From Reclinomonas americana ATCC 50394 (lineage: Eukaryota): DNA of 51,026 nt. Positions 5,197 through 47,451 of the stretch are shown in pieces. The translations under genes and the position numbers were made by a program. The notes beneath the pieces were generated by a model. That model made no database searches. It saw only the letters and a list, made by a program, of their open reading frames with translations, and had not been told where the DNA came from. Positions within the stretch are counted from its first letter, which is position 1. Every line of letters begins with the position of its first letter. The stretch is taken from positions 74,173 through 125,198 of the forward strand of contig PS015536.1 of NCBI GenBank assembly GCA_048213135.1, written 5' to 3'.

Positions 5197-8100
5197 ATGT
5201 CAGGANNNNNNNNNNNNNNNNNNNNNNNNNNNNNNNNNNNNNNNNNNNNNNNNNNNNNNNNNNNNNNNNNNNNNNNNNNNNNNNNNNNNNNNNNNNNNNN
5301 NNNNNNNNNNNNNNNNNNNNNNNNNNNNNNNNNNNNNNNNNNNNNNNNNNNNNNNNNNNNNNNNNNNNNNNNNNNNNNNNNNNNNNNNNNNNNNNNNNNN
5401 NNNNNNNNNNNNNNNNNNNNNNNNNNNNNNNNNNNNNNNNNNNNNNNNNNNNNNNNNNNNNNNNNNNNNNNNNNNNNNNNNNNNNNNNNNNNNNNNNNNN
5501 NNNNNNNNNNNNNNNNNNNNNNNNNNNNNNNNNNNNNNNNNNNNNNNNNNNNNNNNNNNNNNNNNNNNNNNNNNNNNNNNNNNNNNNNNNNNNNNNNNNN
5601 NNNNNNNNNNNNNNNNNNNNNNNNNNNNNNNNNNNNNNNNNNNNNNNNNNNNNNNNNNNNNNNNNNNNNNNNNNNNNNNNNNNNNNNNNNNNNNNNNNNN
5701 NNNNNNNNNNNNNNNNNNNNNNNNNNNNNNNNNNNNNNNNNNNNNNNNNNNNNNNNNNNNNNNNNNNNNNNNNNNNNNNNNNNNNNNNNNNNNNNNNNNN
5801 NNNNNNNNNNNNNNNNNNNNNNNNNNNNNNNNNNNNNNNNNNNNNNNNNNNNNNNNNNNNNNNNNNNNNNNNNNNNNNNNNNNNNNNNNNNNNNNNNNNN
5901 NNNNNNNNNNNNNNNNNNNNNNNNNNNNNNNNNNNNNNNNNNNNNNNNNNNNNNNNNNNNNNNNNNNNNNNNNNNNNNNNNNNNNNNTTCTTCCTCTCTC
6001 TCTCTCTCTCTCTCTCTCTGTGCAACAGCTTCGTCAATGGCGAACGACGATTGTGCTGGTCATTGCGCCGCTGATCTTCACGATCATTCTCATCATCTTG
6101 CAAGCGGGTCTGTCGAATCAAGCCGGCACCAATGGCGAAGTCGGTGAGGCTTACCACTCTCTCTCGCCACACGTCTCTCTCTGTGCTCACTCTCGCTCTG
6201 CCAGTTCGCTCATTCCCCGTCACGACCGTGCCCAAAATCCCCAACTGCTATCCCAATCCAACCACCGGTCGCTGCACGACAATCGCCTACGCGCCCAACA
6301 ACGATGCCGAGCTGACGCAGGCCATTCTGAACATTGTGGCGGAGCACGGCATTCGTGACACGCCTGTGGCCTTCGAGTCTGGCGATGTCATCAACACGTA
6401 CCTCATCAACAACCGCAACACGACGCAGGCGGCGTACATTTTCAATTCCGCCTTCACCTCCAACGCCGTCGACTACACCATCCAGTACAACACGACGCAG
6501 TACTGCCGCGACATTTTGTGTAATAACCCGCAGCAGGACATTGTGGTGCGTGATGGGGCAGAGGTGGTGTGGTGTGGTGGTTGATCTTGTCCAACACACT
6601 CATCATGCCATGCAGTTGCCGATGCAAGTCGCCATGAACAATCAGGTACGCTCGTGTATTTTTTCTTTTTCTGGTGGTTGTCGCACACTCGCTCACTCTG
6701 CGAAAACGTAAACTCACAGCTCTGGTTGCGTCACTTTGGTCGCTCCAAGGCACGGCACTTCATTTTTTGTCTCTTTCCCCCCGTTTCATGCGCGTCTCAT
6801 CATGATCTCCACTGCGCAGACGACTTCCATGGCTCAGTACCCGCGTGCGGAACTGTACCGCGTGGATGGTACGCGACAGGTCGCCTGTTTCTCTCGCGCT
6901 GCGGAATCGCTCACACGCGTGCGCACAGTGATTGCCAACTTTGGCATCTTCTTCTACTTCCTGGCCTACATGTTCATCTTTATCGTCACTCTCGGACAAA
7001 TCGTGCTGGAGAAAGAGAACAAGCTGCGCGAGGCACTCAAGCTGGCGGGCCTCGGAGTTGCGTGTGTGTGTAGACCCCATGCTGTGTTATTGAATGAGCT
7101 CACCGCCTGCTGTGCAGAATGGCTCCTTCTGGACGTCGTGGCTTTTGCAGCAAATGATTCTGGTGACGCTGACCACGTTTATCATTATCGCCGCCGGTGC
7201 CGCCTTCCAGTTCCAGTTCTTCCTGAAGAACAACTTTGGCACGTACTTTTTCCTGTTCGAGCTCTTCGGCCTCAGCATTGTCATGCTCAGCTTCACGCTG
7301 TCGACCATCATCAACCAGTCGCGCATTGCCAGTTGCGGACCGCCGACAGCCACCAGTCATGAGACTCGACCTCACTCAGTTCTGTTTCGCAGCTCCAATC
7401 GGCTTTGTGCTCTTTATCGTGTTCTACTTTTTCGCATCGGTCGCCGGCAACATCTACCCGATTGTGTCAGAAGGTGACGCGGAGAACGTGGGGGGAACAG
7501 TCACAGCTCGAACTGTAGTTGCTTATCTATGTTTGCACCGCGCATCAGGCTGGCGTCAACTGTTTGCTTTTTGCCCCCCAATCTTGTTTGCCAAGGTCTG
7601 TTTCCGCAGAGGCGCGAGGCTGCCCGATTGCTCGTCTCACTCGCTGCTGCGCCGCAGGGTCTGAGCGACCTCGGCACGGCCGCCACCAGCGGACTGAGCA
7701 GTGGCATCTCGTTCAGCCGCGTCGCGTCATACACCGAGTGCGTAGCATGCTTGGGCACTCCATCTCTGCATTGGCTGACGTAAAGTGTTACCGCGCAGCA
7801 TCTGGCCTCTGAGCAAGATCTACGGCTGGCTGATTATTGACACTATCATCATGGGCATCATTTGCTGGTTTGTTTGCGAGTCGCCGCTCCTTGTGTGCAT
7901 TCTCTGCTCACCATGTCTCTTTTCTCCTCACTTGCAGGTACCTGGACCACGTCGTGGCATGTGCGTTGTGTGGCACATCGTTTGTCGGAGTCTGGTGTGT
8001 GGTACTGACACACTTTTGTCGTGTGTGGCGCAGCACCCTCTGGTGCCAGTGACCGCTGGTACTTTTTGTTCACCAAGTCGTACTGGACCGGCCGAGCGTC

Positions 8101-10008
8101 GTCGCACAAGCGCGAAGTGGAACGCGAGCGCCCGGGCCTGCCAGTCTCCGATGCGGTTTGTCTCCTTTTCTAAATTTTGCAGCATGCCTTGTCACCACCA
8201 CCTGGACTCATCGTGCTCGTGTGTCGCAGATGCGTGAAGACGAAGATGTGCGCGAGCTGCGACAGCGCTTGATGCGCGAGCCGCGTGCCAATGAGGCCAA
8301 CGCGCCGCCACTGTATGCTGTGCGCGTGGAGAACCTCATCAAGCAGTTCGGCAGCGGCCGCACTGGCTACGCTGTTAAGCGCCTGTACATGGCAGTGCAG
8401 CCGAATTCCCTATTCTGCTTGCTGGGTCCAAATGGCGCCGGCAAGGTATGTCTCTTACGTGTCTCTGTGTTCACGTGTTCGTGAGCTGACTTTCCCTCCA
8501 GACCACCACTATCTCCATGATTACGGGCCAGATGCCACCGACAGCTGGCTCGATTGAGGTCGACGGTTACGATATCTACATGCAGCTGCCGGAGATTCGT
8601 CGCACCATTGGCGTGTGCCCGCAATGTTGCGTCTCTGCTCCCGTGCTTTTCAAGCATAGACATGGCACTGACTGGCGTGGTCTGGCCCGCTGCAGTTGAC
8701 ATTTTGTGGGAAGAAATGTCGGCGCGTGAGCATCTCGAGCTGTTTGCGGGACTGCGTGGAATGTCAAAGAAGCGCATCCCCGATGAGGTGCGCGAGCGAC
8801 TGGAGCAAGTCGGTCTGTTCGATGTGCAAAACGATCGTGCCAGCTCGTTTAGTGGTGGCATGAAGCGTCGATTGTCGGTGGCCATTTGTTGCGTTGTTGT
8901 ACTTGCTCACTTCCCCTTTCCTCGGCGAATGCTTACTTTGGTGTGCTCCCTCACAGCGCTCATCGGCAATCCGACTGTCGTGGTGCTGGTGCGTCCCCCT
9001 TTCGTCTTTATTTTTGCTTTTCGTGCTCTCTGCTTTGCCTCACACCTCACATTGTAGGATGAGCCGACGACTGGCATGGACCCTGTCATGCGCCGCAAGG
9101 TGTGGGACATGATCGAGGAGGCCAAGCAGGATCGCACAATTATCTTGTTGCGTTTATACGCCGTGGCATTCATTGGTTGCACGCATGGCGTGCGCTCACA
9201 TTGTCTTCTTCTTCATCCGTTCACAGGACCACCCACAGCATGGAGGAGGCCGACATTCTCGGCGACTCCATCGGCATCATGGCACAAGGCCGTCTGCGAT
9301 GTGTTGGTCCATCGCTGCGCTTGAAGAACAAGTTCGGCGCCGGCTACCAGATCACACTGCACTGCGAACTCACTCGCATCCACGATGTGCGCGGACTCAT
9401 GCATCACATCTTGCCGGAGGCGCGGCTGGTGCAGGAGCTGAGTGGCTTCTTGACGTACAACGTTCCGCGTGCATGCACGTCTCGTCTGCCTCAGGTGTTC
9501 CGCACTCTCGACGAGTACACGGCGCAGTACGGACTGCGTGACATCTCAGTGCGCCTGACCACACTCGAGGAGGTGTTCTTGGCCATTGTGGCGCGCGCCA
9601 ACGCCGATGAGGCAGTGGTCGGCCCAAGCGCAGCACCGCAAGCCGTGATTATGGGACCCGATGGACAGGCCATTCGCACCACCATCCAGTTCGACGTGGA
9701 CGGCAACCCACAATTGGTGCCGGAGAACGGCGGGCCCGCCATCACTGGACATCTCGCCGCACAAGGTATAGTCACACTTACCCGAATGCGTCTTTTGGTG
9801 GCATGATCCTCTTTGCTGACTCAGCTGTGCCCCGCTAGCCGCCGCCGCTATTGGATTGAGTCCACCACAGCCGGCTGTTGCAGCAGGACCACAGCAGGTA
9901 GCACCATATCCAGGGCCTCAGCCGAATTCTCGTCCTCAATTTGCACCCTCGCCCTCGCCCTCGTCGGCGTCCGCTGCCGCACCACCATCACCAGCCGCAC
10001 GGCCATAA
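5197..10008 (+). CDS. ABCA-subfamily half transporter (one TMD + one NBD), ~16 introns, gap near 5' end
   Basis: [21 protein letters not shown] (Walker A), [23 protein letters not shown] (signature), [10 protein letters not shown] (Walker B), [29 protein letters not shown]. Pro-rich tail ends at TAA 10006-10008. The start at 5197 is tentative because it abuts the gap. Confidence 0.92.
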
Positions 10009-14988: not shown

Positions 14989-15100
14989 TCAGCATTTGAC
15001 CCATGACTCCACTCACAGTGAATCCACGCTGCTACTTTCGTGTAATTGCTGTTGATTTCTTTTTCACTCGGTGCGGTTGGCGTTCAAGAGGGACGAATAC

Positions 15101-18100
15101 TTAAATCTCACGACCCTCGTCGTCCAAGTTGCGCGTTGCGAATCTAAAGAGGGAGCCCGCATTGGTGGTTGTCGAGCTGGGTGGACTCTGCGTCGTGCGC
15201 GGACTCTGCGTCGTGCGCGGACTCTGCGTCGCGGGTGGACTCTGCGTCGGCGGTGCCGCGGCAGTGGCAGGGGCCGAGCCGAAGCGTTCCACTGGCGGTG
15301 TTGGTGAAGGTGTTGGTGACGGCGATGACGCCTCACTGGCGGCGAGAATGCTGGACGCCTTGCGCAGATCGACCGATTGCACCGCGCGTCGCGACGACGG
15401 CGCGGCAGTGAGGTCGCCGAACGGATTGGAGCTGCGGGTACTGCTGTGGCTGCTCGGTGGCGTCACCTGCATGCTGGCGTGGTGCGCGCGCATACCGAGT
15501 CGCTGAGACGACGTTTCCGACGGCACCAAGAGTGGCGGAGGGGCGCGCGTGGTTGGTGGTGACCGTGGCATGCTGCCCGTGGCAGAGAGGCGTGAGCTGT
15601 TTCGCGTGTGCACCAGTGGTGGCGGGGTCGCTGGTGGCATCTGGCCGGGACTGTCGGATCGTGCCTACCAGACAGAATATGAGTATGGAGGGAGCAACAG
15701 ACGCAGCAGAGAGCACCCACGCACCCATCCACCACCAAGCAGTGCACCCTCTTCGTCGTCTTGCGAGTTGGTCGACATGCGTCGATCGCCGAGACCAGTC
15801 GTCGTCGAAGACGGTGGCGGGCACACAACTGGGTCGGTGGAGGCCGAGATGCTGGAGGCGCCGTGGGCAGCCATCTGCGAGCACGTGTCAGTCACCGTAC
15901 GTGCGTGTGTTCGTGATCGATGGCAATGAGTGAACGAACAGCTTCCGCCACGTAGGAGGCTGGCAGCTGCACTTGCACGACGAGGTTCGTCGGGGTCTTT
16001 GCCGCCGTGCCAACGTCCGCAGTGCCGGCACCAGCGACCACGCCAGTGGCGCCCGGTGCGGCGCTGGAGAGGTCGTCGAGGGTGATGGACTGCACAGCAT
16101 CGCAGAGTGAGGAGAGGCAACCGTCAAAACCGTCACGTGCAGAACGCAACCGATGGGAGACCACCGTGGTGGTCATCGATGCTGCTGATGCGCGTGGCCT
16201 TGCCCTCGCTGTCCACCACTGACCAGGTGAGCTTGGCGCGGCGCTTCTGACGCTTCTGGACCTGTGGCGATGAACGGAAGAGAATGAGTACGCAGGCGAA
16301 AGAGTGACAGAAAGGTGCAAGTGCACACACCAGGCGGATGAGGAACTGTACTGCGACTAGACCGCCGATACACAAGAGCAGTAGCGGGGCGACAACGGTC
16401 TGTGAACGAAACGAAAGTCAGAAAAACACTGGCGACAGCGGTGGACCGAGTACGAGAGTCGCACAAGTGGGATCCTGAGTCTGCGATGAGAGGGCGGAGG
16501 AGTGAGAACAGCGGAGCGAGATTAGTAGCAAGACTTGACGCAAAGAAACGAAACAGTCTGCGCACAGAACGAGGACACGTGAGAAGCCGGGGATGAGAGC
16601 CAAGAGAGAGCAAAGAGAGAGAGACAAAGAGTAGGACTCACCCGTATGGAATCGGTGCAATGAACCACACCATCCATTCGGCACGGCGCTGCAGCTTGTC
16701 GACCAGCTCCGATTGTTGTTTCTGCGAAGAGGCGGAGAGAAGTGAGCCACGCCGCACTGTAAAGAAATCAAAGAATGTGGCGAACCATCATCAGTGTAGA
16801 AACCAAAATGTACCACACCAGCCTGCGCCAGAAGAATCAGCACCACTTTCCAAACTTGATTCTCTCCACTGCCAACACACGCAACGTGGTCAACGTGATA
16901 AAGTACGAGATGAGCATGAAACGATCGGCAAATGTCTGCTCGCAGGTGAGCAAAGTGCATGCGACATGAACTCATGCGAGGCGCTCACCATGGTGCCCGA
17001 TGGCACGCCCAAGTTGTCTGTCGATAGAGGGGATGGGGTGAGAGTGTGTAGATCAAATTTCGTTGACGAACATTCACGAAACAATGATACATGACGAGGG
17101 CCTGCGAAGAGGCGGAGAAGTGAGCATGAAGCGCATGTGACATGCGACGGCGATCACGACAGCACGCAACGACAAAGGAGTTGGTGACGAGACCAAACGA
17201 CGTGGACAGGTAGTCCTTGTAGGAGAGCGAGAACGACGACAACACAATCAACTGTCGTGCGCTCATACAGTGAGCAGCAGCGACACTTGGAAGGAAGAAG
17301 GGCGAAACGCACAACAATGAATATCGGCGGTAGAAGAGTCTGCAGAAGCGAGAGTTAGTTGTGGAGGAGAGGATTTGTACACGCCATCCACTTGCCTTGG
17401 AGAAGCACTTGAAATCTGCGACAGCGAGCGAGTGTGTGAGTGGCTTCTCATCGGGAAAACACAGCAACACGAGAATGGCGACGACTCACATGGTCTGTTG
17501 ATGGGCATAATGTACTCGAGCATGGGCGTGGTGGCCAGACCGCGCTTGTACATGGTCATGCCTTTGAACTGGACCAGTGGGTCGTCAAACTCCCAACCAG
17601 GAATGACTGGTAATGCTCCGTGAGCACTCTGACGAAAGCGATCTCCCTCTCATCGCCTCACGCAACTGATATCATCAGCGTATCCACTGGCCTCGGGTAT
17701 GAACTCCATATGCGTGACGCCATTCACCCAAAAGCGAATGTTGAGTCGCTCCACCTGCGTCACACGCAAGCAAAATCAGGCACTGGCATCAGTCACCAGT
17801 CACCGCAGTGCCGCAACATCAAACGGAAAGTCTTGAGCTTCCAGCGGCCAGTTGAGCGTCGTGCGACAGATGGTGTAGCAGTCGGAGGGAAAGTACGTGC
17901 CTTCATGGACGATCATGAGCCGCTACGAAGACAACTGCAAGTGCTGCAGTGGAGACGCAACATCGCACCCACAAGCCCGCATTGTCGACCCACGGGTCCT
18001 GTGACCCATCCGCGGCCGGCATCCAGCAGGCGTTCTCCGGTTGCGGAGTGCGAAAGGTGAAGACGAGAGTGGCGTCAAAGGCGCCCGTGTCGACCACCAC

Positions 18101-18604: not shown

Positions 18605-19615
18605 ATGCATTCCAGCTTTGCTCGACTGGCGGTATACACCTGTCATTGTCGTCGCCTTCCCTCAGTCAGTCATTCACTCAGTTGTCGACAGATCCCGTGT
18701 CGATCGTTGGTGACGGCCGCCGTTTGTCGCATTCTACGCGTTGTCGGTCACACTCCGACTGCGCCGAGCATTCTTCCGCAGTCGACGTTCGCCACGCGGT
18801 TGCGTTTCCTGCTTGCTGGCTGCGGCACTCTTTTTATTTGTTATTTTCCTTCTTTCCGTTCCTCCTCCTGACCTGTCGCGAAGAGAATTCTCGGTTTCGA
18901 GGAATCGATTCGCGTGGTGGTGCTCACACGCGGAAGCAGGTCGTCGTATTCCTTCCCGTTGTTTATCACCGCTTCTACGAGAGCATTTGCCACCACCTCG
19001 AAGGCTCAACAGTCTGTCACCAGCACCAGCACCACCGCCAACAAGATGTCGATGCAGGCCTCGCAGCAACCCGACGTGGTCGACTTTATCATCACCGACC
19101 ACCAGGTGATGAAGGACAAGCTGTCGGAGCTGAAGAATGCCGCCAGGGAGCAGCGCCAGTTGCTGCTGGAGCAAGCGGGCGCCATGCTGCGCGCGCATCA
19201 GCGAGCCGAGGAGCAGCACGTGTACCCGGGCCTGGCCAATCAGGGCTCGGTGGAGAAGGGCCTGGTCCAGCACGCTTTCGACGAGCACCGCGAGGCCGAG
19301 GCGCTGCTGATGCAGCTCGAGGCGTGTTCGATCGACTCGGCCGAGTTCGACAAGGTGCTGGGCGAGCTCGAAAAGGGCGTGCTGCACCACATGAACGAGG
19401 AGGAGACGAAGGTGCTGCCGACGATGCGACGCGAGCTGGAGCGCCAGCGGCTGCTGGACATGGGTGTCAAGTTTGAGCGCCAACGCTTGGCCGAGATGGC
19501 CGCGGAGGCGCCGTCGGCCTCCAAGTTGTCGGCCGCCTCCACCGCCACCGCAGCGCTCGGCGGAACAGCAACAACGACATCATCGACCACGACCTCCTCT
19601 CGCGGAACCGCCTAG
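18605..19615 (+). CDS. Hemerythrin-like (HHE) domain protein with predicted mitochondrial presequence
   Basis: DH...AHQRAEEQHVYP...EH...HHMNEEETKVLP di-iron motifs. Inferred introns 18632-18691 and 18799-18939 join an R/S/A-rich, acid-free N-terminus. Confidence 0.8.
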
Positions 19616-21630: not shown

Positions 21631-23124
21631 ATGTCGTTCGGCATCAAGGGTTGCGTTGCGGGTAGAGGAGAAGAGGGGGAGGAGCGATAGAGTGCAATGC
21701 AGTTTGTTTTTGTGTTGTTTGGTGTGAAATGGCGCTCTCTCTCTCACAACTTTGTGTCTGTCTGTGTGTGCATTAGTTCTGGGCACTCGCGGTGCGGTGC
21801 AGGCCGAGTCTGCGCAGTTCACAGTCGGCTCTGCGCGTCAGAAGGCCTTCTGGGGTCAAGTGGTGACGCTGTTGCGTGAGGAGTGCCATGCTCATGACGC
21901 ACACACCTCTCTCTGTCTCCCTCTCTCTCTTTCTCGCACCCAACTGACACACACACGCACGCACACACGTTGCATGTCTTTGGTGCTGTCTCTCTCTCTC
22001 ACACACTGTGTGCAGGCCAATGGGTGACGGCGCACTGCTGGTGCAGTTGTTTGACGATGACGATCAGGAGGCTGGTGAGTGTGTGTCTCTCTCTCTCTTG
22101 TGCATCAGTGTCAGAGCAAGTGAGGGATGAGAAAGGAGAGAGAGAGAAGAGAAAGAGAGAAGTGTAATGTTGCATGGTGATCGTATTTGAAGTGCATTGC
22201 ATCGCGTGGTGCGTGTATGTGTGTGTCGTGTCTTTATGTGCGTGCGTGTGTGTGTGTATGTGTGTGCGTGTGTGTGTATGTGCATCGTATGCTCAGCCTT
22301 CGTCCTCTTCTTCTTTCTCGTTCTTTTGTCGCAGCTCGCGTGACCATTGACCTGCACACTGTGGCTCCCAACTCGAGCGACTGGTTCGACCTGAGCAACG
22401 GCTCTGGCGCTGTGCAGCTGAACTTTGAGGCCGTCGGCGGTTGCGTCCTCTTTCTCTTGATGATGATGATGATGATCGCGCACCTCTCATGACTCGTCTG
22501 GCTAATGTAATAGGTGCCGTGGCCATGGACGACGATCCGTTTGGCGCACCGGCGGCCTCGGGCTCTGGCTTCCAGCAGGTCGACTCCGAGGAGGAGGAGG
22601 AAGAGGAGGAGAGCGAGGAGGAGGAGGAGGAGCACCACAGCTCGGAGCCAACGCCGCTCATGTTGTGGCAGGAGAAGCACAACGCGGAGCTCATTGAGCG
22701 CGCCACTGCCGCGCGTGCCAAGCGCGACGAGCGCAAGACCGGTGCCCGTGACTGGTTGAAGAAGTTCTACGAGGATCGCGACGGCAAGCTGTCTGCCAAG
22801 CAGAAGCTCAACCGGTGCGCTTGACATTTTCATTAACCACTCATCCCTTCCTTACCGCCCTTCTCAACCCCGCCCCGCATGTGCAGCCAACAAAACCAGG
22901 CTCTGGTGGAGAAGATCAATGCCAACCTCGGCGTTGGTCAGATCTGGGAGCGTGTCAGCAACCTCATCAACATGGGCGCCAACTCGGCCGGTCGCAAGGA
23001 CGTGGCTCGCATGCGCTCTGTCCTGCTGCAGGTGAAGAACTCGACTCCGGCTCACTTGGCGCGTCACGACGCCGTCGCTGCTGGCGGCCGTGGCGGTGCT
23101 TCGGGCTCGGCCGATCTGTTCTAA
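21631..23124 (+). CDS. Clathrin light chain with N-terminal C2-like beta domain
   Basis: CLC motifs LMLWQEK, WLKKFYEDR, WERVSNLI, KDVARMRSVLLQVK and an acidic tract. Upstream exons (21631-21649, 21777-21870, ~22016-22074, ~22335-22439) splice in frame. Confidence 0.8.
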
Positions 23125-23310: not shown

Positions 23311-24975
23311 TTACTTTATCTTTGAGTATCGCGCCAGGTCGTCGAGACTTCCGTAGCGCCGCTTGACCAGATTGCGATGCGCGGACTCCAAGAAGCGCGC
23401 CTTGCGGTCAAAGTCAAGCGATGTGCGGCTGCGTGGCAGGCCGTCGTGCACGCCTGGCGAACTGCGGCCACTACTGTTGCCGCCGGTCTCGGTCTGTGAG
23501 CCGGCGCGCGCACTCGTCTCCGACGGCGGATCAGCTGGCTCCGGCGTCTCGGCGCGCTCCTGCTCCGGTGTCGGTCGGGGCACGAAGAAGAGCTGCAGAC
23601 GACCGCGGGCACTCTGTCCACGCGGCAGACTCCACAGCAGGTGGCCGAAAACCAGCGACACCAAAATGACGCACACCGAGACGACGGCGGCGCGCCACGG
23701 CAGCGAGAGGATCGCCACCAGAATCGGCACGCACACCCACACGGCACCGGAGGAGATGCGCTGGAGGCGACGCGCCAGTGGCGTGCGATTGACCTTGGTC
23801 AGTGAGCCCACGTAGCGGTACCACGCAAAGCTGGTGTGACAAAAGAAGTGAGCAGCCGCACCGAGTTAGGGGAGAGAAAGCGAAGCAGTGCACGCACCAC
23901 AACGCAATGAGCAGGTACACGCCGAGCACGAAGCGATCAATGTAGGAGATGTTGCTCGACGGCACGTCGAGGTTCCAGTGGAACAAGATGAGACCCCTGC
24001 CGCAAGAGAACCAGGCGGTCAGCATGCTGCAAGAAGCCGGCCGACAATCGTCATGTGTGCGCGTGTACGCAACAACAGCGAGGCACTGCACACCGAACTG
24101 CCGACGCGCACGTAGCTCTCCGGCGGCAACGTAAACGGCGCGGTGACGATAATGACCAGTGCGATCGGTGGCAGGAAGAACTTGATCATGGCCTTGAACA
24201 GCGGTCGGGTCACCGGTACGGCAAAGGTGATGGCTGAGATGGTGTCGGCGCCCCGATACAGGCCACTCGGCCCGCTGATCGACACCGCGTCCCGATCAAT
24301 GTCAAAGGTCGGCAGATACACCTGTGGCAAGCCAAGAAGAAGAGCTCAGGCGCCGCGGAATGGGTGGAAACGCACGGCCAGCTACTGTACCTCGTCGGCC
24401 ACGCCAGAGGCCTCCGGGAACGGAAGCAGGCGAACATTGGGCATCGGCAGCGAGAAGGTCACGGTAATGCTCTCGTCGTTGAAAGGGAAGGAGCCCGAGG
24501 ACAGCACCGGCCAGAACTGCATGACTGCAATCAGTACCTCCCTCTCTCTTTCTGTGAATGTGTACTCTCCACTCGCTTGCGCACCACCGTCGTCTTGCAC
24601 TCAATGAAGCACAACGTGGGCTGCTCGAATCGCTGGCAGATGGCTCTCGGATGTGCATTGTCGATCCACGGAAGCACATCGGGAGGAGGCAACCAGCATT
24701 CATCTCCTCCACCATCTGCTGCCTCGCGACGAAACGAAAACACAATGGTCACATCCGCTCGCGCAGTCTCCAACTTGACATCAGCAATCTGCGCGCTTTT
24801 CGCTGCTCAGCTGGCTGCTGCTGCAATTCACTCATTCACGAGACAGAGAGAGACTGACCCTGCTGATCCACACGCCGGCCTTCACGTCGATCACATCGCT
24901 ACTCTGCGCCTCCGCCACAATCACCGCGACTGTGCACAGAAGAAGCACGAGGCACGCTATTCTCCGCAGTGTCAT
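23311..24975 (-). CDS. Cys-less pentameric ligand-gated ion channel subunit B, with extra TM helix, 5 introns
   Basis: Signal peptide; VKAGVWISRIADVKLE; SFPFND; PEASGVADE; M1 FFLPPIALVIIV; NLDVPSSNISYIDRFVLGVY; M4 AVWVCVPILVAILSLPW; extra helix AAVVSVCVILVSLVFGHLLW. Paralog of 15101-18284. Confidence 0.75.
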
Positions 24976-32039: not shown

Positions 32040-32324
32040 CTCTGCTCACGTTTATGCAGATATAAGCCGCAACATTCACAGCGAAAGAAAGAAAGACAGC
32101 GGAGAGAGAGAGAAGCGCGACGGGGAGAGAATGTCATAAACCAACACACACACACAAACACACTCATATACACACGAATCCCTCCTCCCTCCCACGCAAC
32201 GGGCACTCATTCGTGGAAGCGCGCGCTCTCTCTCTCTCTCTCACAGATAACTCGCGGGGGTGCGTGAGAGCAAACGGGACAGATGCACTGCGCGAGCACA
32301 CGACTGATCGTTGAAAGACACAAA

Positions 32325-34190
32325 ATGGCGACTGCGCCTCCACCCGCCGACTCTGTGGGCCGCCTCGTCTCCGACGTACAACGCTCCCTGCATCGCATTC
32401 GACAGGTGTGACACTCGCACACACATACACACACACACGCGTTGTGCCTGTAGACACACACAACACTCACAAGAGATAATGTCCGTTATGTAGGCTCTGG
32501 CGCAGGAGGATCCACGCGTGGCCGCGCATGTGCAGGGTCTCATTGCCAGTGCAGAGACGGAGCTGAAGCTCAAGGTCTCACTCCTTTCACCACAGTGTGT
32601 GTCTCTCACTCAGTGCTCATTGTTAATTGCGTGCAGGCTGATGAGGTGATTCATGCGAGTCTGCATGGTGCGCCGACGAGCACCACTGGCTTCCTCAGTG
32701 CGACTGGTGAGTGAGTGAGTGAGTTGTGTGCGTCATTGTGCTCACTGGCGACTGACAATTGCTGGTAGCTCCGCCTTCGTTCCAAGCGGACTCGAGGCGC
32801 AAGGCGTTTGAGGCCGGGGCGGCACGAGCGACCGCCAAGGAACGCATGATGCGGGAGAGGAGAGAGAAGGTGCTGCGCAGAGGAAGAACGGAACGGACTC
32901 GAGAGCTGTGAACCGGACATGCCTCCTCACTCTCACCTGTTTGCGTAGGTTCTCGCCGCTCCCGATGTGTACGCTGGCAAGGCCCGCACGCTGCTGCAAG
33001 ACGAGTTTGGCATGCCAACACAGCGCTTCAATCGTCTGGATCGGACCGCCGGTCGTCGCACCAGTGGTCATTTGCACAGAGACAAGGTGCACGGACCGGG
33101 ATTCGTGTTGCCGAAGCAGAATCGCAACGACCCGCTGGCTCCACTGCCTCCAATCTCACCAGAGGAACTCAACAAGGTGTGTGTGCGATACCGTCAGTCG
33201 GAAGAGAGGAGTTGTGAGCTGAAACACGCTGCTGTGTGGTTCCAGGGCCTGCTGAACATGATCCAGAAGGGCATCATTCCCGCCCACGTGGACCTGACGC
33301 CCGCCATGGGCCAGAGCAGCTTCCCGCTGCACTACGAGCCGTCGCGCTTCTACCACCCAGACGAGTATCACATGCGGAGAGAGGTGGCTTCGGTGGCCGG
33401 ATTCAACGCGCAAAGCAATGTGAAGCTGGATCAGGAGGCGCTGCGTGCGCGTGTAGAGGTGCGCACTCGCCACGTCGTTGTTGGTGGGTGAGATCACTGA
33501 CGACGGCGAATGCAGATGACCGAGGAGGCCTACGCCCGGCAAAATGATGCCACCTACCTCGTGCCACAGCCGATTCAGGCACCGCCGCCCCCGCCGCAGC
33601 AACAGCCGACACAGCCACCGGTTTGTCAGCATGGAACCTCGTGTCCATCATCCCCACCGATTGTCTCACTCGCTTCTGTGCAGCCGGTCGACGCAGTCCA
33701 ACGCACCTACGAGCAACTGCTGGATGAATTCTCGCTCCACCACTTTGTCATTCGCAAGGGCCAGGCGTTGCGCGAATCACCCGAATTCTTCTCGTTCCAG
33801 CGCACCTTCCAGCGTGACTGGGGCAACATTTGCTCAATTATTGGCGAGCTGGAACGGCTGCTCACCGAGCTGTCCAGTTGCGCACGCGCGATCGTTTCCG
33901 CGACCGCCCCGCATGCCTTGTCTCATCCCCTTCCACTTGTGTATGCGAATCAGTTCCACTTGCATATATTGATGGTAAGCAGGTGGCGCGTCTCGCCGAG
34001 TCCATGCTGGATTTGCCGACTGTTGCCGAGCTGCTCTCGTGTATTGTGAATCGCGACAAGGTTTGTGTGCAAGCTGTGGATGGGGATTCTTGCTTTGTCG
34101 TTCCTTTCCCTGTTCACTTTTGCTCGCTGCGGAAGGTGTTCTTTGCTTCTGCATGTCACAAGCCAGTAGAAGTCTCACTCTCATTCTTTG

Positions 34191-34231
<41 letters not shown>

Positions 34232-37034
34232 TCTTCCATCAATTCCCTATCTTTGTCATTCTATTTATCTTCCCTCTCGGATCACGTACTTTGTTCTCTC
34301 TTCTTCGTATCGTCCCTCTTTAGCTCCCCCTCCCTTCTCCTCCCCTTCCCCTTCCCTCCCTTCCCTTCCCCTCTTTCCACTTCTCCTCCCCTTCCCCTTC
34401 TATCCCCTCCTCCTCCCTTCCCCTTCTATCCCCTCCTCCTCCCTTCCCCTCTTCTCACCCCCCTTTCCCTTCCCACACAGATCGAACCCTACGTGTACAA
34501 ACCCGGCGCACGCTTCCGCGGTGAGTCCCGTCGAGAGCTGGCGGCCACGAAAATCCAGGCTGTATTCCGCGGCCACATTATTCGTCGCGGTTTCGCTGTG
34601 CTGCGCGCCGCCGTGTACGCCAGCAAGATCATTCAGCGATTCTGGCGCCTGGTCAAACAGAAGCAGCAGACCATTGCTCGTGTGCATGTTTCGTCTCGCT
34701 GCGCCACTACCCCCGTGGTTTTCCTTTGCGCTCACACAGATTTCTCATTCTTGTCATGAACCAGGATATCTGGGATACCGAGTTTACTGCGTGGCAGCGC
34801 TTGCAGACGCAGTTCCTGAAGTCGTGGCGCGATGTGAAGAGTGGGCGACGGTGCGTTCTCAGGTTTCTCACGAGACTGTTTCCATTTCGCGCCTCACCCA
34901 TTTGTGCAGTGTGGAGTTGCATGTGCCGTCGTTGAGTATCGACCTGCAGCAGCGCCAGAACCTCGGCGAGTTTGTCGGCTGTCTCCAGAACGCACAACTC
35001 GGCCGGTGTGTGGTCCATTCGTCACGCGCTCCCTCGTTCCTTTTGTCTCATCCTCGCTGTGCCTCACAGAATCACATGGACCGACGATCAGACGGATGTG
35101 TTGTTTGTCTCCTCGTTCCCGCTGGACGACGAGTGCTTGCAGTATTACCAGAAGATTCTCATGGTGCGGTCCACCGTTGCTGCCGCGTTGCAGTGGTCGT
35201 GTGCTCAGCTCATGCGCGACGCACATACAGGTCAAGGGCGGTTATGCGCAATCACGTCGACCGCTGGAGTCTGCCATGTTTACCGTGTACCCCGACGCAC
35301 ACAAGTCTTTCCCCCCGTTCACCTCCCTCGACAAGCAAATCATGCTGTCTCGTCGCACCGTCGACCGCATCCGCAACATGACAGCCGGTCGGCAAGCGTA
35401 CCTGGTGCCGGGCTCTGTTGGCATCGACACGATCCGCCTGGCAGCGGTGAGTGGCCTTGGTACTCTCCGTGCCGACGATATGCTTGTCTCATCTCCTCTA
35501 TCCCAGAAACTGGAATTGCCGATCCTCGGCCCGATGCCCGACGTGGCCGCCGTGTACGGCTCCAAGTCGGGCGCCAAGCGCATTTTTGCGGCTGCTGATG
35601 TGCTGATCCCCACTGGTGAGTCTCCTTACAGTGCGTGCCTTTGCTGTGCTATGACTTACCTCGTGGTGTGTGGGGCAGGCGTGGCCGATCTGTACGACGA
35701 GGAAACCTTTGTGGAGCGTCTCGTGGGCCTGTTGATTGAGTTCCCCCGTGTGCAGCGGTGGGTGTTCAAGCTGGACAACGAGTTTGACAGCCGCGGTCTG
35801 GCGTATCTCGGTGAGTGCGCACTGCATCCTTCGTGTTAGGTCTCCAATCTCTCACCGTGCGTCGCAGATGTTGGCCGCCTCGGTAACTTGGATCACCTTC
35901 GCGATGTGTACACTTCCATGGACACGGACGAGGAGCTGCGCAACCGCACGTATCAGACGCTGGTGCAAATGGTTGGCGAGTCGCTGCCGACCATGGTCAC
36001 GATTGTGACGCGCCGTGCGTACAAGTCGTGGAAGGACTTTGCGGCGGCGATGAACGACTCGGGTGCTGTCATTGAGGCGTACCCCGCCAAGCCACTCGGT
36101 TCACCATCGGTTGGCATGCTGGTGGAGCCGGATGGCACTGTGCGCATCCACTCGGTACTCCTGCAAGTCCCCGATCCCGAGTGCCCCTTCCGTGTGCCTG
36201 CCAGCTTGATGGGCAACGGCGAGTGGCCGGTGCCGTTTTCAGCACTCAAGCAGGCTTCGCTGTCGATTGCGCAGCGCTGCTTCGAAAAGGGACTGATTGG
36301 CTACATTTCCGTCGACTTTGTGGCCTTTTCTGATCTCGTTGCGTCACATGGCCACCACCACGATTCGGCCTGTCTCTACAACGCAACTCATTAACTCTCG
36401 CCACAGTCGGAGGTGCGTTTGTGGGCTGTGGATTTGGACATTGGCTTGTCGTCGCGTCATGTGTGCTTCCATGTGGTGCGGACCATGACCAAGTTGCGTT
36501 GCATTGCGTCGTATCTCTTGCGTATGTCTGTATGCTTACCTGGTCACTGCAGTGCCACGCTTGACCTGGCCACCGGCGCCCTGATCGGCCCCGGCGGCTC
36601 TTTCACGTACCTCGATCTCGGCATGATGTTCCACCCGTACTTGAGCAGCATTCCGCACGCGCAGTTTTTCCAGCTGTGCCGCGAGAATCGCTTCGTGTTC
36701 GACACGGAAGAGGGCACGGGTCCCATTTTCCACTTGGTCAACACACTGCTCAGGGGCTGGATTGGCATCTCGTTGCGTGCACCTCTCCTCGTGTCGTCAC
36801 GCACTCAAGGGCGTTTCAGCTCATTTTCGCATTGCATACAGGTGTGTCGGCAAGTCGCTGAAGCAAGTGAGCTTGCAAGCCGCCGACCTGGTAGACTTTT
36901 TGGATGTGGAGCTCGCAGGTGTGACGGGCGAGCGGAAACTCGCTGCTACGAGCACCAACGTTCCTGTCATACGGCGAATCGCCTTTGCACTGGTGGAACA
37001 AGTGGTGCCGCTGAGTGCGCCACCAGCTCCATGA
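32325..37034 (+). CDS. IQCH: IQ domain-containing protein H-like, ~20 introns
   Basis: GLLNMIQKGIIPAHVDLTPA, LLDEFSLHHFVIRKG, IPLAYIDGK, IQ motif AATKIQAVFRGH, SKSGAKRIF, RWVFKLDNEFDSRGLAY, GYISVDFVAF, LWAVDLD. Confidence 0.9.
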
Positions 37035-37296: not shown

Positions 37297-40200
37297 CTAA
37301 TATGTGTACGAGTATTTCACCTGCGATGCGTGGCGGTGAGCGACAGAAATGTAGACCTGCGGCAACAAGGAGACGCTCACCTTGTACGGCCCACTGGCCT
37401 GCATACCGAGATGCTGGATGAGGGTGAACGCGCCAGGGAGGAGAGTGCGCGTGACCACGATTTCAGAGAGGTCACCGCCAACCACCACGTTGCTCGAGGC
37501 CTGAAAGTCCATGCAAATGTCCACCACGCGCCCTCCAACCACCTCCGCACCATAACTAAACGTGTGTCCACGCTTCGATTGGTACGTGTACAGCAGGATG
37601 CGCTGCGAGGCCTGCTGCACTCCGCGTTGGTGAATGAGAGCGGACCACGCTTGAACCATTAGCTGCGGCGCACAATAGTCAAATCACTGCCTCGCGCACG
37701 CAATGACATGTCGACAACGCACAGTCGGTTCTCGCGGCATGAGTGTGCACACAAACGGATCTGTGCTGTGCACAGACACCATGTAGCATCGACTGTGGAC
37801 CGAGCTGAACGAGTAGTCGTAGCCGAGGCGCGACAGGCACCACAAGACAACCCCCTGCACGTCACGCAGCTGGTGAGCAAGAGTGGCAGCAGAGGAACAT
37901 GAACGGAGGGGACTGACGCACTTCGCCTTGCTGCTCCAAGATGTTGCTGATGAACTGAATGAGTCCGCGCTCCGACAATCCGCGCCGAGTGCTGCAACAC
38001 CGCGGCAGTATGTGCTCCGCAAACTGCTGCTGCGAGAGAGGCTCGCCAATCATGCGCATGTACAGGCGCGAAAACTCGGCGTAATCCAACACCTCGTCCA
38101 TGTCCATGTCGTACGTGCGGAACACATCCTGCGACGCAAACTCGTGAGCGACACAGCAGAATGTGTGCTGCTGCTGTTGCTGTCACGCAACTCGAAGGGT
38201 CGACACGAGTTCGTGGCGCAGTGTCCGATCGTCGTGCTTCAGTGTCGGTGGCACATCGAGGCACGCATCGGGTATCTGTGAGCGCAACATGCATCCGGTG
38301 GTTCTGCGAGAAACAGTTCGTAAGTGAGTCGTAACTGCGGCGAGGCCGCGGTAATAATAGCAGGCACGCAACATGGGCACCACAGTGTACACGCCAGGCT
38401 CAAGGTCGCACTCCAGCTGCCACTGCCGCTCCCTGGCGGTGCCGTTCTCCGCCACCACGGTCAGCGATCCGTCGGCTTCTCGTCGGAAAACCACCAGGCC
38501 ACAATCGATATATGGCCGATGCACATCCACCCAAAACTCCCTCTCGTCCTCCTGATGGATCGTCAGGTAGACTCGCGACCGCTGCAGGATCTGTGTATCG
38601 GCACGGGAAAGTGCGAATGAGATCTCTGTCACCAAAGTCCAACTATGTGATGCACACAGTCACCTCGAGAGTGTACGACGAGCACGACACCGAGTGGTCG
38701 AGCTCGCGCTGAAACACGCCCTTTAACCTGCTCTCCTGCCACTCCGGTCGCACCCTGCTCGAAGAATCACATCATCAGCGCAGTGTGGACAGACAACAAT
38801 CCGCAATGCGATAGTGACACGCAACATGCAAAACGACATCTGAGAGAATTCGACGAAGAAGTCCTCAAAGCTCATGTAGAACTCTCCATTTTCCTCCTCC
38901 ACCGGCGCCAGCACCGAGCGCAATTCTGGCGTCCACAGCGGGGACGCTGATGACCAATCGCCGTTCCTGCAAGAGAATCACAACGAATGAGGAGACAAAT
39001 ACCACGCGCCTCGGTCAGGTGCAAAGTGTCACAAACCACCTGTCACGACACACAATGAGTTTCGTGTCTCTGACTCGACAAGAACGCACAAGGGAGACGC
39101 GTAACTCAAAGCGACCCCACGGATTGCGCAGTCGGAGGAGACGGTGACCCTCAATGTCGAACGCTGCCTGAATCGTGTACGAGTGGCCGGGGACAAGTCC
39201 ACTGCCCGAGCGCGGCGTGTCGCCTTCTTCGGTGAACGTGTCCACCCCTGCCCGACAAGCGACAAGAGTGAGCCTACACGCAAGTATTCGTGCTTCTGCG
39301 CCATCAGCCACCTTTGGTCTCCGCACAACATACATCGCCGTCGCACATGCGCGTGAGAATGTGCTGCCAGAGGGCGCCACTGGCCATCATCTCTTCCGTG
39401 TGCGGATGCTCGAGCACAATGTGCTCGAACGGTGCGCCAGTGAGATCAATCAGTGCGTCACGCGAGCAACCCCGTCGTAGCTGCCATCATGCATCATCGA
39501 TCAGACATGCGGATGAAAGGGGAAAACGGAATCGACGGGTCACTCGTGCACACCTGGTTGTAATTGCCGTGCAGTTTGGCATACGCCTTTTCCAGCAAAC
39601 TTACCCACAACTGATCGTTCTGGCAGCGTGAGAAGATGAAACCACCACCTGCGCAGTCGAGCAATGAGGCGGAAAGGCCAAGAGGCGATGTGAAGAGACG
39701 AATGCAGCGCCCCGACTTACCAACGCTGCACGGAAAGTAATCGTCCACTGTCACCGTTCGCCACTGTCCGTGTTTGGCGATTCGCATCTGCACACGCACA
39801 CACGCACACACAGATGCTCCAGTGAGCAGAACTGGAGGCGAGTGAGAGGTTGACACGCAGTCGCAAAGAGAGACCTTGTACACGCCGAGTGGATCGTACT
39901 CGTCGGTGACAAAGAGGCGTCGGATGCGCTCTGGCTTTTCCGCCAGCGCGGCCACGGCGCTGAGGAACCAGCTGCATGCGATATGGTGGAAGATGGTCAG
40001 CTCTTTGAATCAACAGATGCCTGTGCAACAAAGAATGAACGTCACCAGTCGGCGAGCTTGCCCTGAATAATGGTCGACGGCTCCATGCTGGCGCCCAGAA
40101 TCACCGGCTCACTGTCGCCCTTGCCCCGCGCTCGCATAATCTCCAGTGGTCTCTTCCACTCGATAGACGACATCTGTGTGCGTGCGACTCGGCCAATGAG

Positions 40201-41304
40201 CAACGAGTCACGTGGAAAAAAGGATGCCGGCGACCCACGCAACGCTCTTGTCACGCTCCGTGTCCGACTCAAAGATCGAAGTCATGAGCGGAGGAAAGTC
40301 AAGATCCACAAAGCTCAGCGGCTGTGCACGCTCGCGGGCCATATCGCTGCACGCGGCCTCCTGCAGGTACGAGCGGATGCGCTCCGCCGGCATGATGTCA
40401 CTCGGCAAGTCGCGCAGCAGCTGTCGCGCAGTGTCAGCGGTGAAGCAGCAGAGAAGGGAGGAAGAAGAGGTGTGTACCTGCTCGCCCAACGACACATGCT
40501 CAAGGACACGCGCCGCCGATTCAAGCGCCATCACTTCGGACTCGCGTCGCGACAGCTGTCGCGTTTGCACTCTGCACGACGAGGTGTGAGAGCGCTGTCG
40601 AGAGAGAGAGAGAGAGAGTGATCCAATAACAACCCGCCACACCTGTAGTGCACATGAAAGTACATCGGCTGCAGCGGATCCACACGATCCACACGCGTCA
40701 CAAACTTGGTCTCCCCAGCCATCACCGATGCATTCACCACCGTGCTGTCACTGCGCACCAGCTCTCGTCAACTCACCACCACCGTCACTCGCGACACAAA
40801 GACAGATCCACAAACGCAACGAGCTGGCACTCTGCACGCGCACATTACTGCAGTCCTTGAACGACAGCTCAATGTCCAGCGGCTGCCCCGACTCATTCTC
40901 CACATGATACGCAAAGTAGGCCGGCTGTGTCAGCGAATATCAGTCACAGATCTTCCGCACTCTGCGACAGCAGAGTTCCCTCGTTACCTGTTCCGTGCCC
41001 ACCATGAGGCTCAGCTCGCCCAACGGCTTCACCAGCACCTGCCGGATCCACACTCCCTCGCCCGCACAGATGCTCTCCACCGTGCTCGACTCCTCTTGCG
41101 CCTCTTCCTTTGCCTCTTGCGCCACTGTCTCTATCTCACCAGCGCGCTTCTTCGCACGCTGAAGTCGCCGACGAAGTATCTGATCAACATCATCGTCGTG
41201 GCCACGACTGCTCGACGCCTAAACATCATTGTCACATGTCAAACTCGGGACATTCTTTGGTGATCTTCTTTCTTGCACGCGCGCACACACGCAACTTGTG
41301 ACAT
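37297..41304 (-). CDS. Calpain cysteine protease (CysPc + C2-like + EF-hand, with beta domains at both ends), ~17 introns
   Basis: Intact triad QGKLADCWFL / GHSY / RNPWG, plus VDDYFPC, WVSLLEKAYAKLHG and EF-hand DMDMDEVLDYAEF. Confidence 0.92.
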
Positions 41305-44000: not shown

Positions 44001-44107
44001 CGTCCTCTCTCTCGAAAGAAACAACAAAAAATCCAACGAGCGTCGTAACGGTCGAATTTCAATTGTTGGTTTACAGACACAGGGCTATGCAAGGCAACGT
44101 CGTGGCC

Positions 44108-45775: not shown

Positions 45776-47451
45776 CTATTCTTCACCCATCACCACCGCC
45801 CGGAGCACCTCCATGCAGCCGACCGCCGCCAGTCGCTGGTATTCCTCCTCTGAGATGGCGAACATGGAGCCGAGGAAGGCCATGGCGTTGCAGCCGAATC
45901 CAAAGGCCTCTTCGCGCTCACGAGGAATGACGAGAAGGTACTCTTTCGTCAGCAGAATATTGTACGACGGTGCGCCGTGATCAAAGTCCACTTCGATCGG
46001 CTCGTCTTCCTCGTCACGCGATTCGCCAGAGTCTGCGGGGCGTTTTCGTATCAAGAACAGTTGCGAGGAAATGGTTTGCTTGGCAGACACAAGACGCAAC
46101 GGCGAGCGGTGGGGTACACAGCGAGGCGTTCGACTCGCTTGTGGAAGCGCTTACCGCCCTCCTCTAGCCCCAACACATGCAACTCGGCCTTCAGCAGCTT
46201 ATGCAGCGCGCCTGCATAGCGCATCGTCACCGCGGCGTACTCTTCGCTGTTCGTCTCGCACGCCAGCACCTCGGCAGAGTAGGAGCCGATGAGGTCGGTG
46301 ACATCCAACAGCAGGTGGCGGAACTTGAGCGCCGGGCAGTGCAACACACGCGAGTGCGGCGGTCGCCACCGCGGCGACGCCAACACCCCATCCGAATCGC
46401 CATCCGAATCCGAACCGGACGCCGACGCACTCCCCGCTCCACGCGCCACACGATGCTGCCGCACAGCCTCGCAGATGAACACATGCAACGGGAAGGTCGA
46501 GTGATCCAGCGGAACCATTTGCAAGTGTCGATGCGGTTGACTGTGGCATTCGAAAGATTCATCGGTTCGCATATTTTTGCATGCATCATCTCGACATCAA
46601 AACAACAAGCGTACGAACCTCGGTCCCGCCTCCACGCCCTTGTTGTAAAAGATGAGCACATCGTTCGGCACGCCCTCATCGTACGCATATCGTGCAAGCG
46701 CGCTGGCAACAAAAACTTTCTTCAGCAAAAAAAACAAAGGGAATATGCAATCGCCTGCGAGTGACAGAGAGAAAAAGAGGGCACCTGATAGACGCCGCCG
46801 TGTCATTGACCGACAGTGGAGCACACTGCAACTCAAACTGTCGCGTAGTGATCAGCACGTGATAGGGCACCACATTGAACTTGTTCAACACGAGCGTGTG
46901 GTCCGGGAACGCCTCCTGCTCACACAAGTCAACAGAGAGACAACCACTCAGTGAGAGAGAGGGAGAGAGAGGCACTCAACTTCCTCCACTGTGAGCTCGG
47001 GGTCTGGAGGGAGGAACGGATCATACACTGCGCGTCGCTCTTCCACGAGAAGCCCATCGGAGGCGGGAGAACTTTGTGTGTGTCAGACAGACAGAGAGAG
47101 TGAGAGAGTGAGAGTGGACACTCACACACAATGCACTCTCACCCGTGTCGCGTGACATCGTGCTGGCGATCCAAGTTGCTTGTCTTGCGTGGTCGCTGCG
47201 TGGCCACAGACACATTCCACTGTGCGCAACATTGTGAGAGTGAGAGAGTGTGTGTGTCTTGTATGTGTGTGTCTCTGCTCACCTCCACGCCATCTTGCGA
47301 CAAGACGCGACGCTCACACGGAAGAGTGCACAGTGCACCAGTGCTCAACGCATGCTCTGCAACCTCACGCACTTGACACACACAAAGGCATCAGTGAGAA
47401 CATACTGTCTATGTGTGAGCGTGAGAGAGCGCACGCACCTCGCTTCCACAT
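45776..47451 (-). CDS. Ap4A phosphorylase / ATP adenylyltransferase (APA1/2-like)
   Basis: DPFLPPDPEL, HTLVLNKFNVVPYHVLITTRQFELQ, FYNKGVEAGPSQPHRHLQ (HxHxQ), SYNILLT...LVIPR, NAMAFLGSM. Confidence 0.9.

Follow-up and report, generated by a model that had tools for sequence, protein, structure and literature searches.

A class of predicted 5′ splice sites displaced by one base and lacking the exon-end G preference in an intron-dense window of Reclinomonas americana

Some atypical human 5′ splice sites are reportedly read by the U1 small nuclear RNA (snRNA) in a register shifted by one base (+1), an observation said to go back to Roca and Krainer in 2009 (cited in Tan et al. 2016, PMC4856993). 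A donor class with a similar displacement was analyzed here in a stretch of 51,026 bases from the eukaryote Reclinomonas americana ATCC 50394 (GenBank assembly GCA_048213135.1, contig PS015536.1, positions 74,173 to 125,198 of the forward strand), which is referred to as the window throughout. Donors were classified by their intronic letters alone into those with a G at position +5 (N5, the normal donors), those with a T at +3 and a G at +6 but not at +5 (S6, the shifted donors, with the consensus GUUGCGU), and the rest (other). The consensus of the S6 donors is displaced by exactly one base from that of the normal donors, and its use is tied to the last base of the exon (position −1).

For a few human sites it is established that U1 can bind in a +1 shifted register and that the cleavage position can be uncoupled from the U1 register, and the validated non-canonical registers, demonstrated site by site with minigenes, together account for about 1.5% of 201,541 donors (PMC4856993). 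The human +1 shifted sites and the S6 donors share an extra base after the GU, a consensus that lies one position deeper and a cut at the GU, and the human test oligonucleotide has an exon ending in ACA before GUCAAGUAUA, that is, no −1 G, like S6 (PMC4856993). They differ in scale, with about 1.5% of the human donors in all non-canonical registers against 52 of the 148 predicted introns in S6 (PMC4856993). Unlike the human shifted sites, the S6 donors have a tight consensus of their own, are found near-exclusively at exon ends without a G and form almost no predicted helix with canonical U1. The human register with a bulge at +2/+3 shares with S6 an additional U right behind the GU but keeps the −1 G paired, which in S6 is absent or depleted (PMC4856993). 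The two-handed 5′ splice-site classes governed by LUC7 likewise consist of exon-leaning and intron-leaning donors, but the available part of their description mentions no displacement of the consensus by one base such as that of S6 (PMC11842720). A literature search found no description of a GTTGCG-type shifted donor class among the top matches inspected. Shifted and bulged registers are already known, and what was not found described is a large class with its own consensus and its own dependence on the −1 base. Donors in Entamoeba read GUUUGU and share the GTT intron start with S6, but the GTTTGT donors of the window are normal-register donors (−1 G in 6/7) that fall outside the shifted class.

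The window is an intron-dense eukaryotic sequence with coding stretches of about 55–60% G+C and A+T-rich spacers, in which 3,089 bases in six blocks read N. Evidence on the introns comes from the window sequence itself and from distant protein homologues. Genes were parsed with a custom Viterbi gene finder whose codon log-odds were trained on Pfam-supported frames and which allowed GT...AG introns of 35–450 nt, using acceptor and branch matrices, a length prior, an intron penalty of −15 and two donor matrices. The donor model was limited to the intronic positions +1 to +9 and never saw the exon −1 base, so that this base cannot bias the calls. In a first pass with a donor model that was empty beyond GT, GTTGCG was already the top donor hexamer (12 out of 76 introns). 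The calibrated parse converged on 170 introns (GTTGCG 41, GTGCGT 22, GTGTGT 12, GTGAGT 11, GTTTGT 7, GTTTCG 7, GTTGAG 5), of which 22 in short, low-scoring or antisense-overlapping models were dropped, leaving a working set of 148 introns, all in the 21 gene models that had good coding scores. The parse has flaws: it missed a WD40 gene (30840-32045, minus strand) and erred locally in the variable part of a gene for an ABCA-type transporter.

The 52 S6 introns consist of 39 GTTGCG, 6 GTTTCG, 4 GTTGAG, 2 GTTACG and 1 GTTGTG donors. A G at −1 precedes 54 of the 71 N5 donors but only 5 of the 52 S6 donors (A17 C14 G5 T16; Fisher p=4e-14), with the other class in between (11/25). A preliminary description of the window had stated that normal donors mostly follow G and that only 4 out of 45 shifted donors do so; the independent parse bears out both statements (about 4/52 S6 donors after curation), and the contingency test suggested there, run here on predicted introns, is the one just given. 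The normal donors cited as examples are all present (6646 cag/GTACGC, 8446 aag/GTATGT, 8989 ctg/GTGCGT and 14361 ctg/GTGCGG; here and below the slash in a donor marks the exon–intron border). The −1 bases before the individual donor hexamers are as follows.

Before GTTGCG: A12 C11 G4 T12
Before GTGCGT: A4 C1 G13 T3
Before GTGAGT: G9 T2
Before GTGTGT: A1 G7 T1
Before GTTTGT: C1 G6
Before GTTTCG: A1 C2 T3
Before GTTGAG: A2 C1 G1
Before GTTACG: A2

The same contrast between N5 and S6 is found among all 170 parsed introns (−1 G in 61/82 vs 5/56), on the plus strand (30/37 vs 4/23, p=2e-6) and the minus strand (24/34 vs 1/29, p=1.7e-8), among the 63 introns of 50–100 nt with above-median 3′ signals (28/32 vs 1/22), after removal of the introns adjoining micro-exons (52/68 vs 4/49) and in a hand-curated table (approximately 56/71 vs 4/52). 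It is distributed across the S6-bearing gene models of the window. Seen from the exon side, the 70 junctions after G carry 54 N5, 5 S6 and 11 other donors, and the 78 junctions after A, C or T carry 17 N5, 47 S6 and 14 other donors. The share of S6 (47/78 at non-G vs 5/70 at G junctions) fits the earlier proposal that introns can sit at junctions without an exon-end G. The heptamer GTTGCGT occurs in 40 copies in the window against 11.1 expected. Raw heptamer counts made without gene models showed no clear effect (after G, GTTGCGT 5/40 vs GTGCGT 23/86, p=0.11) because they are diluted by non-donor copies. The density of GTTGCGT is 0.417 per kb-strand in the window but 0.031 across 492 kb from 80 unrelated metagenomic loci that encode ABCA homologues, which makes the signature a property of this organism.

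It is certain that the S6 donors have no preference for G. An active depletion of G, which the preliminary description had called avoidance, is moderately supported, with 10% observed against a background of 21–32%. The 5/52 lie below the codon-position-matched coding share of G (0.32, p=1.4e-4 one-sided) and below the share of G before any GT of the window (1360/6476, 0.21; p=0.025 one-sided, or p=0.009 for 4/52), and copies of GTT[GTA]CG follow a G in 4/50 cases if used as donors versus 13/56 if unused (p=0.037). S6 is also positively drawn to A and T at −1; of the 23 S6 introns in phase 0, 8 follow a codon with a final A, against a background of 10%.

When S6 is moved by one base, its letter profiles match those of N5 at slots +3 (N5 G59 T9 A3; S6 G44 T6 A2), +6 (N5 T52 C9 A6 G4; S6 T41 C6 G4 A1), +7 (N5 G29 C22 A10 T10; S6 G25 C13 T10 A4) and +8. 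On the exon side, the S6 −1 profile is indistinguishable from the N5 −2 profile (A15 C24 G10 T22; chi-square p=0.48) and far from the N5 −1 profile (p=8e-12), and the N5 −2 position is G-poor too (10/71 vs 0.29 expected, p=0.0055). A T is found at +7 in 41/52 S6 donors, and a G at +4 occurs just once in N5. Donors that share the GTT start separate by the position of the following G: GTTTGT (G at +5) follows an exon-end G in 6/7 cases and GTTTCG (G at +6) in 0/6 (p=0.005), so it is the position of the G that decides, not GTT itself. That GTTTCG donors follow bases other than G had been noted before, and this is the case at 34688 (+), 17082 (−) and 26610 (−); a fourth donor, cited at 13673, actually lies at 13663, off by 10. 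At matched intronic strength, GTGCGT follows a G in 13/21 and GTTGCGT in 4/34 cases (p=1.8e-4), and the persistence of the contrast speaks against plain compensation of a lost −1 G by a strong intron side. Overall, the displacement of the core by one base explains the letter statistics well and, with partial support, better than a bulged base or compensation.

The exact borders of a subset of introns were fixed by protein homology. Spliced translations were aligned to distant homologues, the 17 residues around each junction were scored for gaps, and junctions that were gap-free in at least 80% of the homologues were accepted. Among the 25 junctions that passed in the genes for the ABCA-type transporter, a calpain and an IQCH-like protein, a −1 G is present in 12/13 N5 and 0/12 S6 donors (p=2.7e-6). 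The remaining junctions of the three genes fall in variable regions, where the alignments neither confirm nor refute them. The accepted introns are listed with the number of gap-free homologues.

7057..7117, plus strand: S6 intron a/GTTGCGT, ABCA, 28/30
7332..7392, plus strand: S6 intron a/GTTGCGG, ABCA, 30/30
8626..8695, plus strand: S6 intron t/GTTGCGT, phase 1, ABCA, within the conserved CPQ/FDILW motif of the ABC domain, 34/35, mean identity 0.48
8888..8956, plus strand: S6 intron t/GTTGCGT, ABCA, within the ABC signature region RRLSVAI/SLIG, 35/35, mean identity 0.64
9147..9226, plus strand: S6 intron t/GTTGCGT, ABCA, within RTII/LTTH, 39/40, mean identity 0.63
33877..33953, plus strand: S6 intron a/GTTGCGC, IQCH-like, 43/43
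34688..34764, plus strand: S6 intron t/GTTTCGT, IQCH-like, 43/43, but in a stretch of low identity (0.12)
36772..36841, plus strand: S6 intron c/GTTGCGT, IQCH-like, 36/40
39040..39105, minus strand: S6 intron a/GTTACGC, calpain, just before a 3-nt micro-exon, 35/36, mean identity 0.66
38304..38372, minus strand: S6 intron t/GTTGCGT, calpain, 31/35
38129..38191, minus strand: S6 intron a/GTTGCGT, calpain, 34/35
40751..40820, minus strand: S6 intron c/GTTGCGT, calpain, 24/25, but in a stretch of low identity (0.14)
7868..7937, plus strand: N5 control intron g/GTTTGTT (GTT with G at +5), ABCA, 33/34
8446..8501, plus strand: N5 intron g/GTATGTC, ABCA, after the Walker A motif (GPNGAGK/T), 34/34
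8989..9057, plus strand: N5 intron g/GTGCGTC, ABCA, before DEPTTGMDP, 35/38
39649..39720, minus strand: N5 intron g/GTAAGTC, calpain, 35/36
35447..35506, plus strand: N5 intron g/GTGAGTG, IQCH-like, 43/43
6546 (after g) and 7961 (after t), plus strand: other N5 junctions, ABCA, at least 80% gap-free
40045, 39553 and 39036 (all after g), minus strand: other N5 junctions, calpain, at least 80% gap-free
34061, 34851 and 35811 (all after g), plus strand: other N5 junctions, IQCH-like, at least 80% gap-free
39874: junction of the other class, g/GTCTCTC, gap-free against homologues

Three of the ABCA introns of class S6 interrupt invariant motifs of the ABC domain (CPQ/FDILW, RRLSVAI/SLIG and RTII/LTTH), and at 8626 and 8888 shifting both intron ends by one base yields a junction residue that does not fit the motif. 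As judged from these alignments, the S6 introns are in all probability true GT-AG introns that are cut at the GU.

The micro-exon of the calpain gene (GTG, 39037-39039, minus strand) lies between the introns 39105-39040 and 39036-38967. It is needed for the conserved RNPWGRFEWNGDW, whose W would be lost with a single 139-nt intron, and it is flanked by a shifted first donor (a/GTTACGC) and a normal second donor (g/GTTTGTG).

Intron positions were compared within two paralogous pairs inside the window. The genes 15101-18284 (−) and 23311-24522 (−) share an intron whose donor class changes with the −1 base, as the shift predicts.

16823..16885, minus strand: S6 intron c/GTTGCGT, phase 2, alignment column 261, same phase as 23831-23897
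23831..23897, minus strand: N5 intron g/GTGCGTG, phase 2, paralogous in position to 16823-16885

These two genes form a membrane pair, one of two paralogous families in the window; the other is an EF-hand-like trio (10203-10879 (−), 10983-11511 (+) and 12115-12671 (−)), and in the families some intron positions are common to members. In the membrane pair, the introns at 17170 and 24073 lie one base apart in position and both have shifted donors.

Apart from their donors, the two classes of introns have much in common. The branch motifs CTCAC, CTCAT and CTGAC occur in both N5 and S6 introns, the distance from branch to acceptor is 20 nt in N5 and 19 nt in S6, the median lengths are 67 and 69 nt, the body composition is the same and the phase distribution is similar. 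An all-against-all blastn comparison of the 148 intron bodies found no shared bodies, only low-complexity matches, and an introner-like family was dismissed as the bodies form no sequence family. Introns of the U12 type, which are spliced by the minor spliceosome, have a distinct and highly conserved donor and branch-site consensus; this assignment was rejected for S6, whose donor is GTTGCGT and whose branch motif (CTCAC/CTCAT) and acceptor distance are those of the normal introns.

We lean towards the reading in which the GTT..G donors are recognized through the normal signal shifted by one base, with U1 as the reader, a single core and a +1 register. The GUUGCGU donors would then be real GT-AG introns in which an extra U pushes the signal G/GUGCGU one base inward. 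The reader of the 5′ splice site, most likely the 5′ end of the U1 snRNA, would bind the core G-N-U-G-C-G-U in both classes, and the first G of this core would be the last exon base in normal donors and the intron's own +1 G in shifted donors. The exon base before a shifted donor would land in slot −2, which appears to be weakly read and is G-poor in normal donors too. Cleavage would remain at the GU, which is probably fixed later, at the takeover by U6 and U5. In effect, this would be a conditional code in which an exon-end G calls for a normal donor and an exon-end A, C or U mostly for a shifted donor. Both the role of U1 and its pairing in the +1 register are what we infer from these patterns.

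Pairing energies were calculated with the 11-nt canonical U1 5′ end as printed in PMC4856993, taking the best sub-helix for each fixed register and nearest-neighbour energies. In the canonical register, N5 donors reach a mean of −5.9 kcal/mol. For S6, the shifted register is the best for 25/52 donors with canonical U1, from which the organism's own U1 may differ. Hypothetical U1 5′ ends with a G opposite slot +4 bring S6 to −4.5 to −5.9 kcal/mol in the shifted register. A compensating base should itself pair, which suggests that slot +4 faces a G in U1 in place of the usual pseudouridine. On the strength of the C that S6 carries at that slot, such a G is predicted for the U1 of this organism with low to moderate confidence. 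No snRNA gene was found in the window with Rfam, at gathering scores and at E up to 1.

Several points weigh against the shifted U1 register. With canonical U1, S6 attains only −0.26 kcal/mol in the canonical register and −0.80 kcal/mol in both the shifted and the bulged register, that is, no stable helix; the duplex energies that had been proposed as a check of the registers thus do not favour the shifted over the bulged one. The same hypothetical U1 ends that stabilize S6 give N5 donors without a −1 G −5.4 to −7.7 kcal/mol, better than S6, so that the dominance of S6 at non-G junctions (47 vs 17) must have a cause other than helix energy alone. Either a paired G in slot −1 has a special role, for example by contacting a protein or when U6 and U5 take over, or there is a second reader. 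S6 is also not simply N5 moved by one base, as it has a C at +5 in 47/52 donors (e.g., 7061, 8630 and 8892) and N5 has a C at +4 in only 28/71 (p=3.6e-9). Slot −2 of N5 shows no clear preference for A, so that a reading of this slot by U1 is not obvious, and the depletion of G below the background of 0.21 is modest (10% observed, p=0.025). In the second paralogous pair, the genes 10203 (−) and 12115 (−), the donors 10741 t/GTTGCGT and 12326 c/GTGTGAC differ in class and follow a non-G base in both cases; the statistics allow this pair, which is not a switch. Furthermore, all introns are predictions from a single 51-kb window. For the +1 register that the preliminary description had advanced, the slot equivalence, the match between positions −1 and −2 and the control by GTTTGT and GTTTCG speak in favour, and the canonical U1 helix, the C at +5 and the pairing energies against.

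The near absence of a duplex between canonical U1 and S6 in any register would be expected if S6 had a dedicated reader, such as a second U1 snRNA with a variant 5′ end fully complementary to GUUGCGU, and if the −1 preference reflected the next base of the variant. The tight consensus (C at +5 in 47/52, T at +7 in 41/52), the extra base that is always T and a −1 G that is below background, not just at background, point the same way. We nevertheless consider a variant U1 unlikely: past the extra U the letter profiles are the same as in normal donors, for which a single reader is simpler, and the stricter need for C fits a helix with one mismatch, whereas a perfect match should tolerate more. 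Less probable still is a bulged extra U with U1 in its normal register, in which the loss of the −1 G would be compensated by a strong intronic half, making S6 a "right-handed" donor. In its favour, pairing of human U1 with a bulge at +2 or +3 has been proven in cells (PMC4856993), two classes of 5′ splice sites with opposite reliance on exon and intron have been described for animals and plants (PMC11842720), and C at +4 tends to be more frequent in N5 donors without a −1 G (10/17) than in those with one (18/54, p=0.09). However, the contrast between GTGCGT and GTTGCGT remains at matched intronic strength, and a bulge would leave the −1 G paired, adding about 3 kcal/mol, so that it should be favoured and not confined to 5/52 S6 donors and 0/12 validated ones. 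A mere relaxation would predict G at its background of 21–32%, not at 10%, nor at none of the 12 validated junctions.

That the S6 introns stem from a distinct wave of intron gain, by introner-like or other insertion, with its own non-G target sites, is very improbable. One difference in its favour is the first downstream exon base (for S6, e.g., at 7118 and 8696), which is a C in 3/52 S6 versus 19/71 N5 introns (p=0.0035, uncorrected for multiple looks), but the downstream exons start without a fixed duplicated motif, the intron bodies are dissimilar beyond low-complexity runs, and length, composition, branch site and phase distribution do not separate the classes. A historical signal should also decay, since the gain or loss of a single intronic T switches the class and leaves the coding frame untouched. 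We give hardly any credence to an annotation artefact, whether by hand or by program, in which the shifted donors would reflect wrongly placed borders or false introns. The introns are predictions and the parse contains errors, such as those at 6656, 6725 and 6887. Yet gap-free alignment to homologues fixes 12 S6 junctions, of which three lie within invariant ABC motifs; false introns called inside exons would weaken the association and not create it; and the −1 base never entered the donor model.

Extended to a rule, the shifted reading of the S6 donors would amount to a two-register donor code, in which the reader, probably a G/C-adapted U1, needs a G in a fixed slot that can come from the exon end or from the intron +1 position, about one third of the introns use the latter, and the cut is set independently of the U1 register. 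We put this forward tentatively, as a possibility that falls somewhat short of probable. If true, a genome with about a third of its introns on a displaced consensus would be a natural genome-scale experiment on 5′ splice-site recognition, would bear on how the cut site stays separate from the U1 register and would show how introns persist at, or enter, codon contexts that offer no exon-end G. There is also a consequence for annotation: after training on a single donor matrix, gene finders will give wrong scores to a third of the donors.

In the automatic parse, the S6 donors after G are 6725, 14980, 16150, 18799 and 22440. The four G-preceded shifted donors that the preliminary description had cited are all present, each as g/GTTGCGT.

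16090..16150, minus strand: g/GTTGCGT, low-complexity C-terminal region, without validation by homology
18799..18883, plus strand: g/GTTGCGT, weak AAG acceptor, without validation by homology
21650..21776, plus strand: g/GTTGCGT, first intron of a hand-built model (ATG at 21631)
22440..22513, plus strand: g/GTTGCGT, TAG acceptor, same gene as 21650

Two of the parsed donors look like parse errors. The donor at 6725 is probably false, as a single intron at 6646-6819 with cag/GTACGC is in frame, and the donor at 14980 leads into a meaningless C-terminus. The parsed donors 6656, 6725 and 6887 are better explained by g/GTACGC donors at 6646 and 6869. The donor at 21650 lies outside the automatic models and fits a hand-built model whose single open frame begins with the ATG at 21631, ends with the stop at 23124 and has a coding score of 75.3. 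This gene (21631-23124, plus strand), which the parse had split in two, has hand-built introns at 21650-21776, 21871-22015, 22075-22334, 22440-22513 and 22815-22886, and by eye its product has a C2-type-looking region, then an acidic stretch and then a clathrin-light-chain-like tail. Two of the four shifted donors that follow a G belong to it, and the acceptor of each is a weak TAG. All four AAG acceptors (17901 and 18110 on the minus strand, 18883 and 15128 on the plus strand) belong to S6 introns (4/52 vs 0/71 in N5), and these calls may be weak or wrong.

The gene content of the window was assessed with a Pfam run on the 150 longest stop-free frames, which identified the following genes.

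About 6044-9806, plus strand: ABCA-type transporter
13171-15506, plus strand: EIPR1-like WD40 protein
18605-19615, plus strand: hemerythrin-domain protein
From 19870, plus strand: MscS-like channel
25692-26670, minus strand: CCT chaperonin subunit
30840-32045, minus strand: WD40 protein
33510-37034, plus strand: IQCH-like protein
37297-41161, minus strand: calpain

The six N blocks (229-744, 5206-5987, 10920-10945, 11563-12052, 25015-25689 and 29678-30277) lie mostly within or beside A+T-rich spacers, and they interrupt the ABCA gene in its 5′ part and the CCT gene in its 3′ part. No close relative turned up in protein searches, in which the top ABCA match was 47–52% identical. For an IQCH exon, homologues came from an exhaustive search only, and a longer-word search gave none. 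Among the 80 metagenomic loci scanned, none exceeded 46% identity except in short segments, and none had the GTTGCGT signature. The WD40 gene on the minus strand (30840-32210), which is strongly supported by Pfam, has a codon usage that is atypical for the window, and the donor of its likely first intron is c/GTTGCGT at 32200, directly after ATG AGT GCC C.

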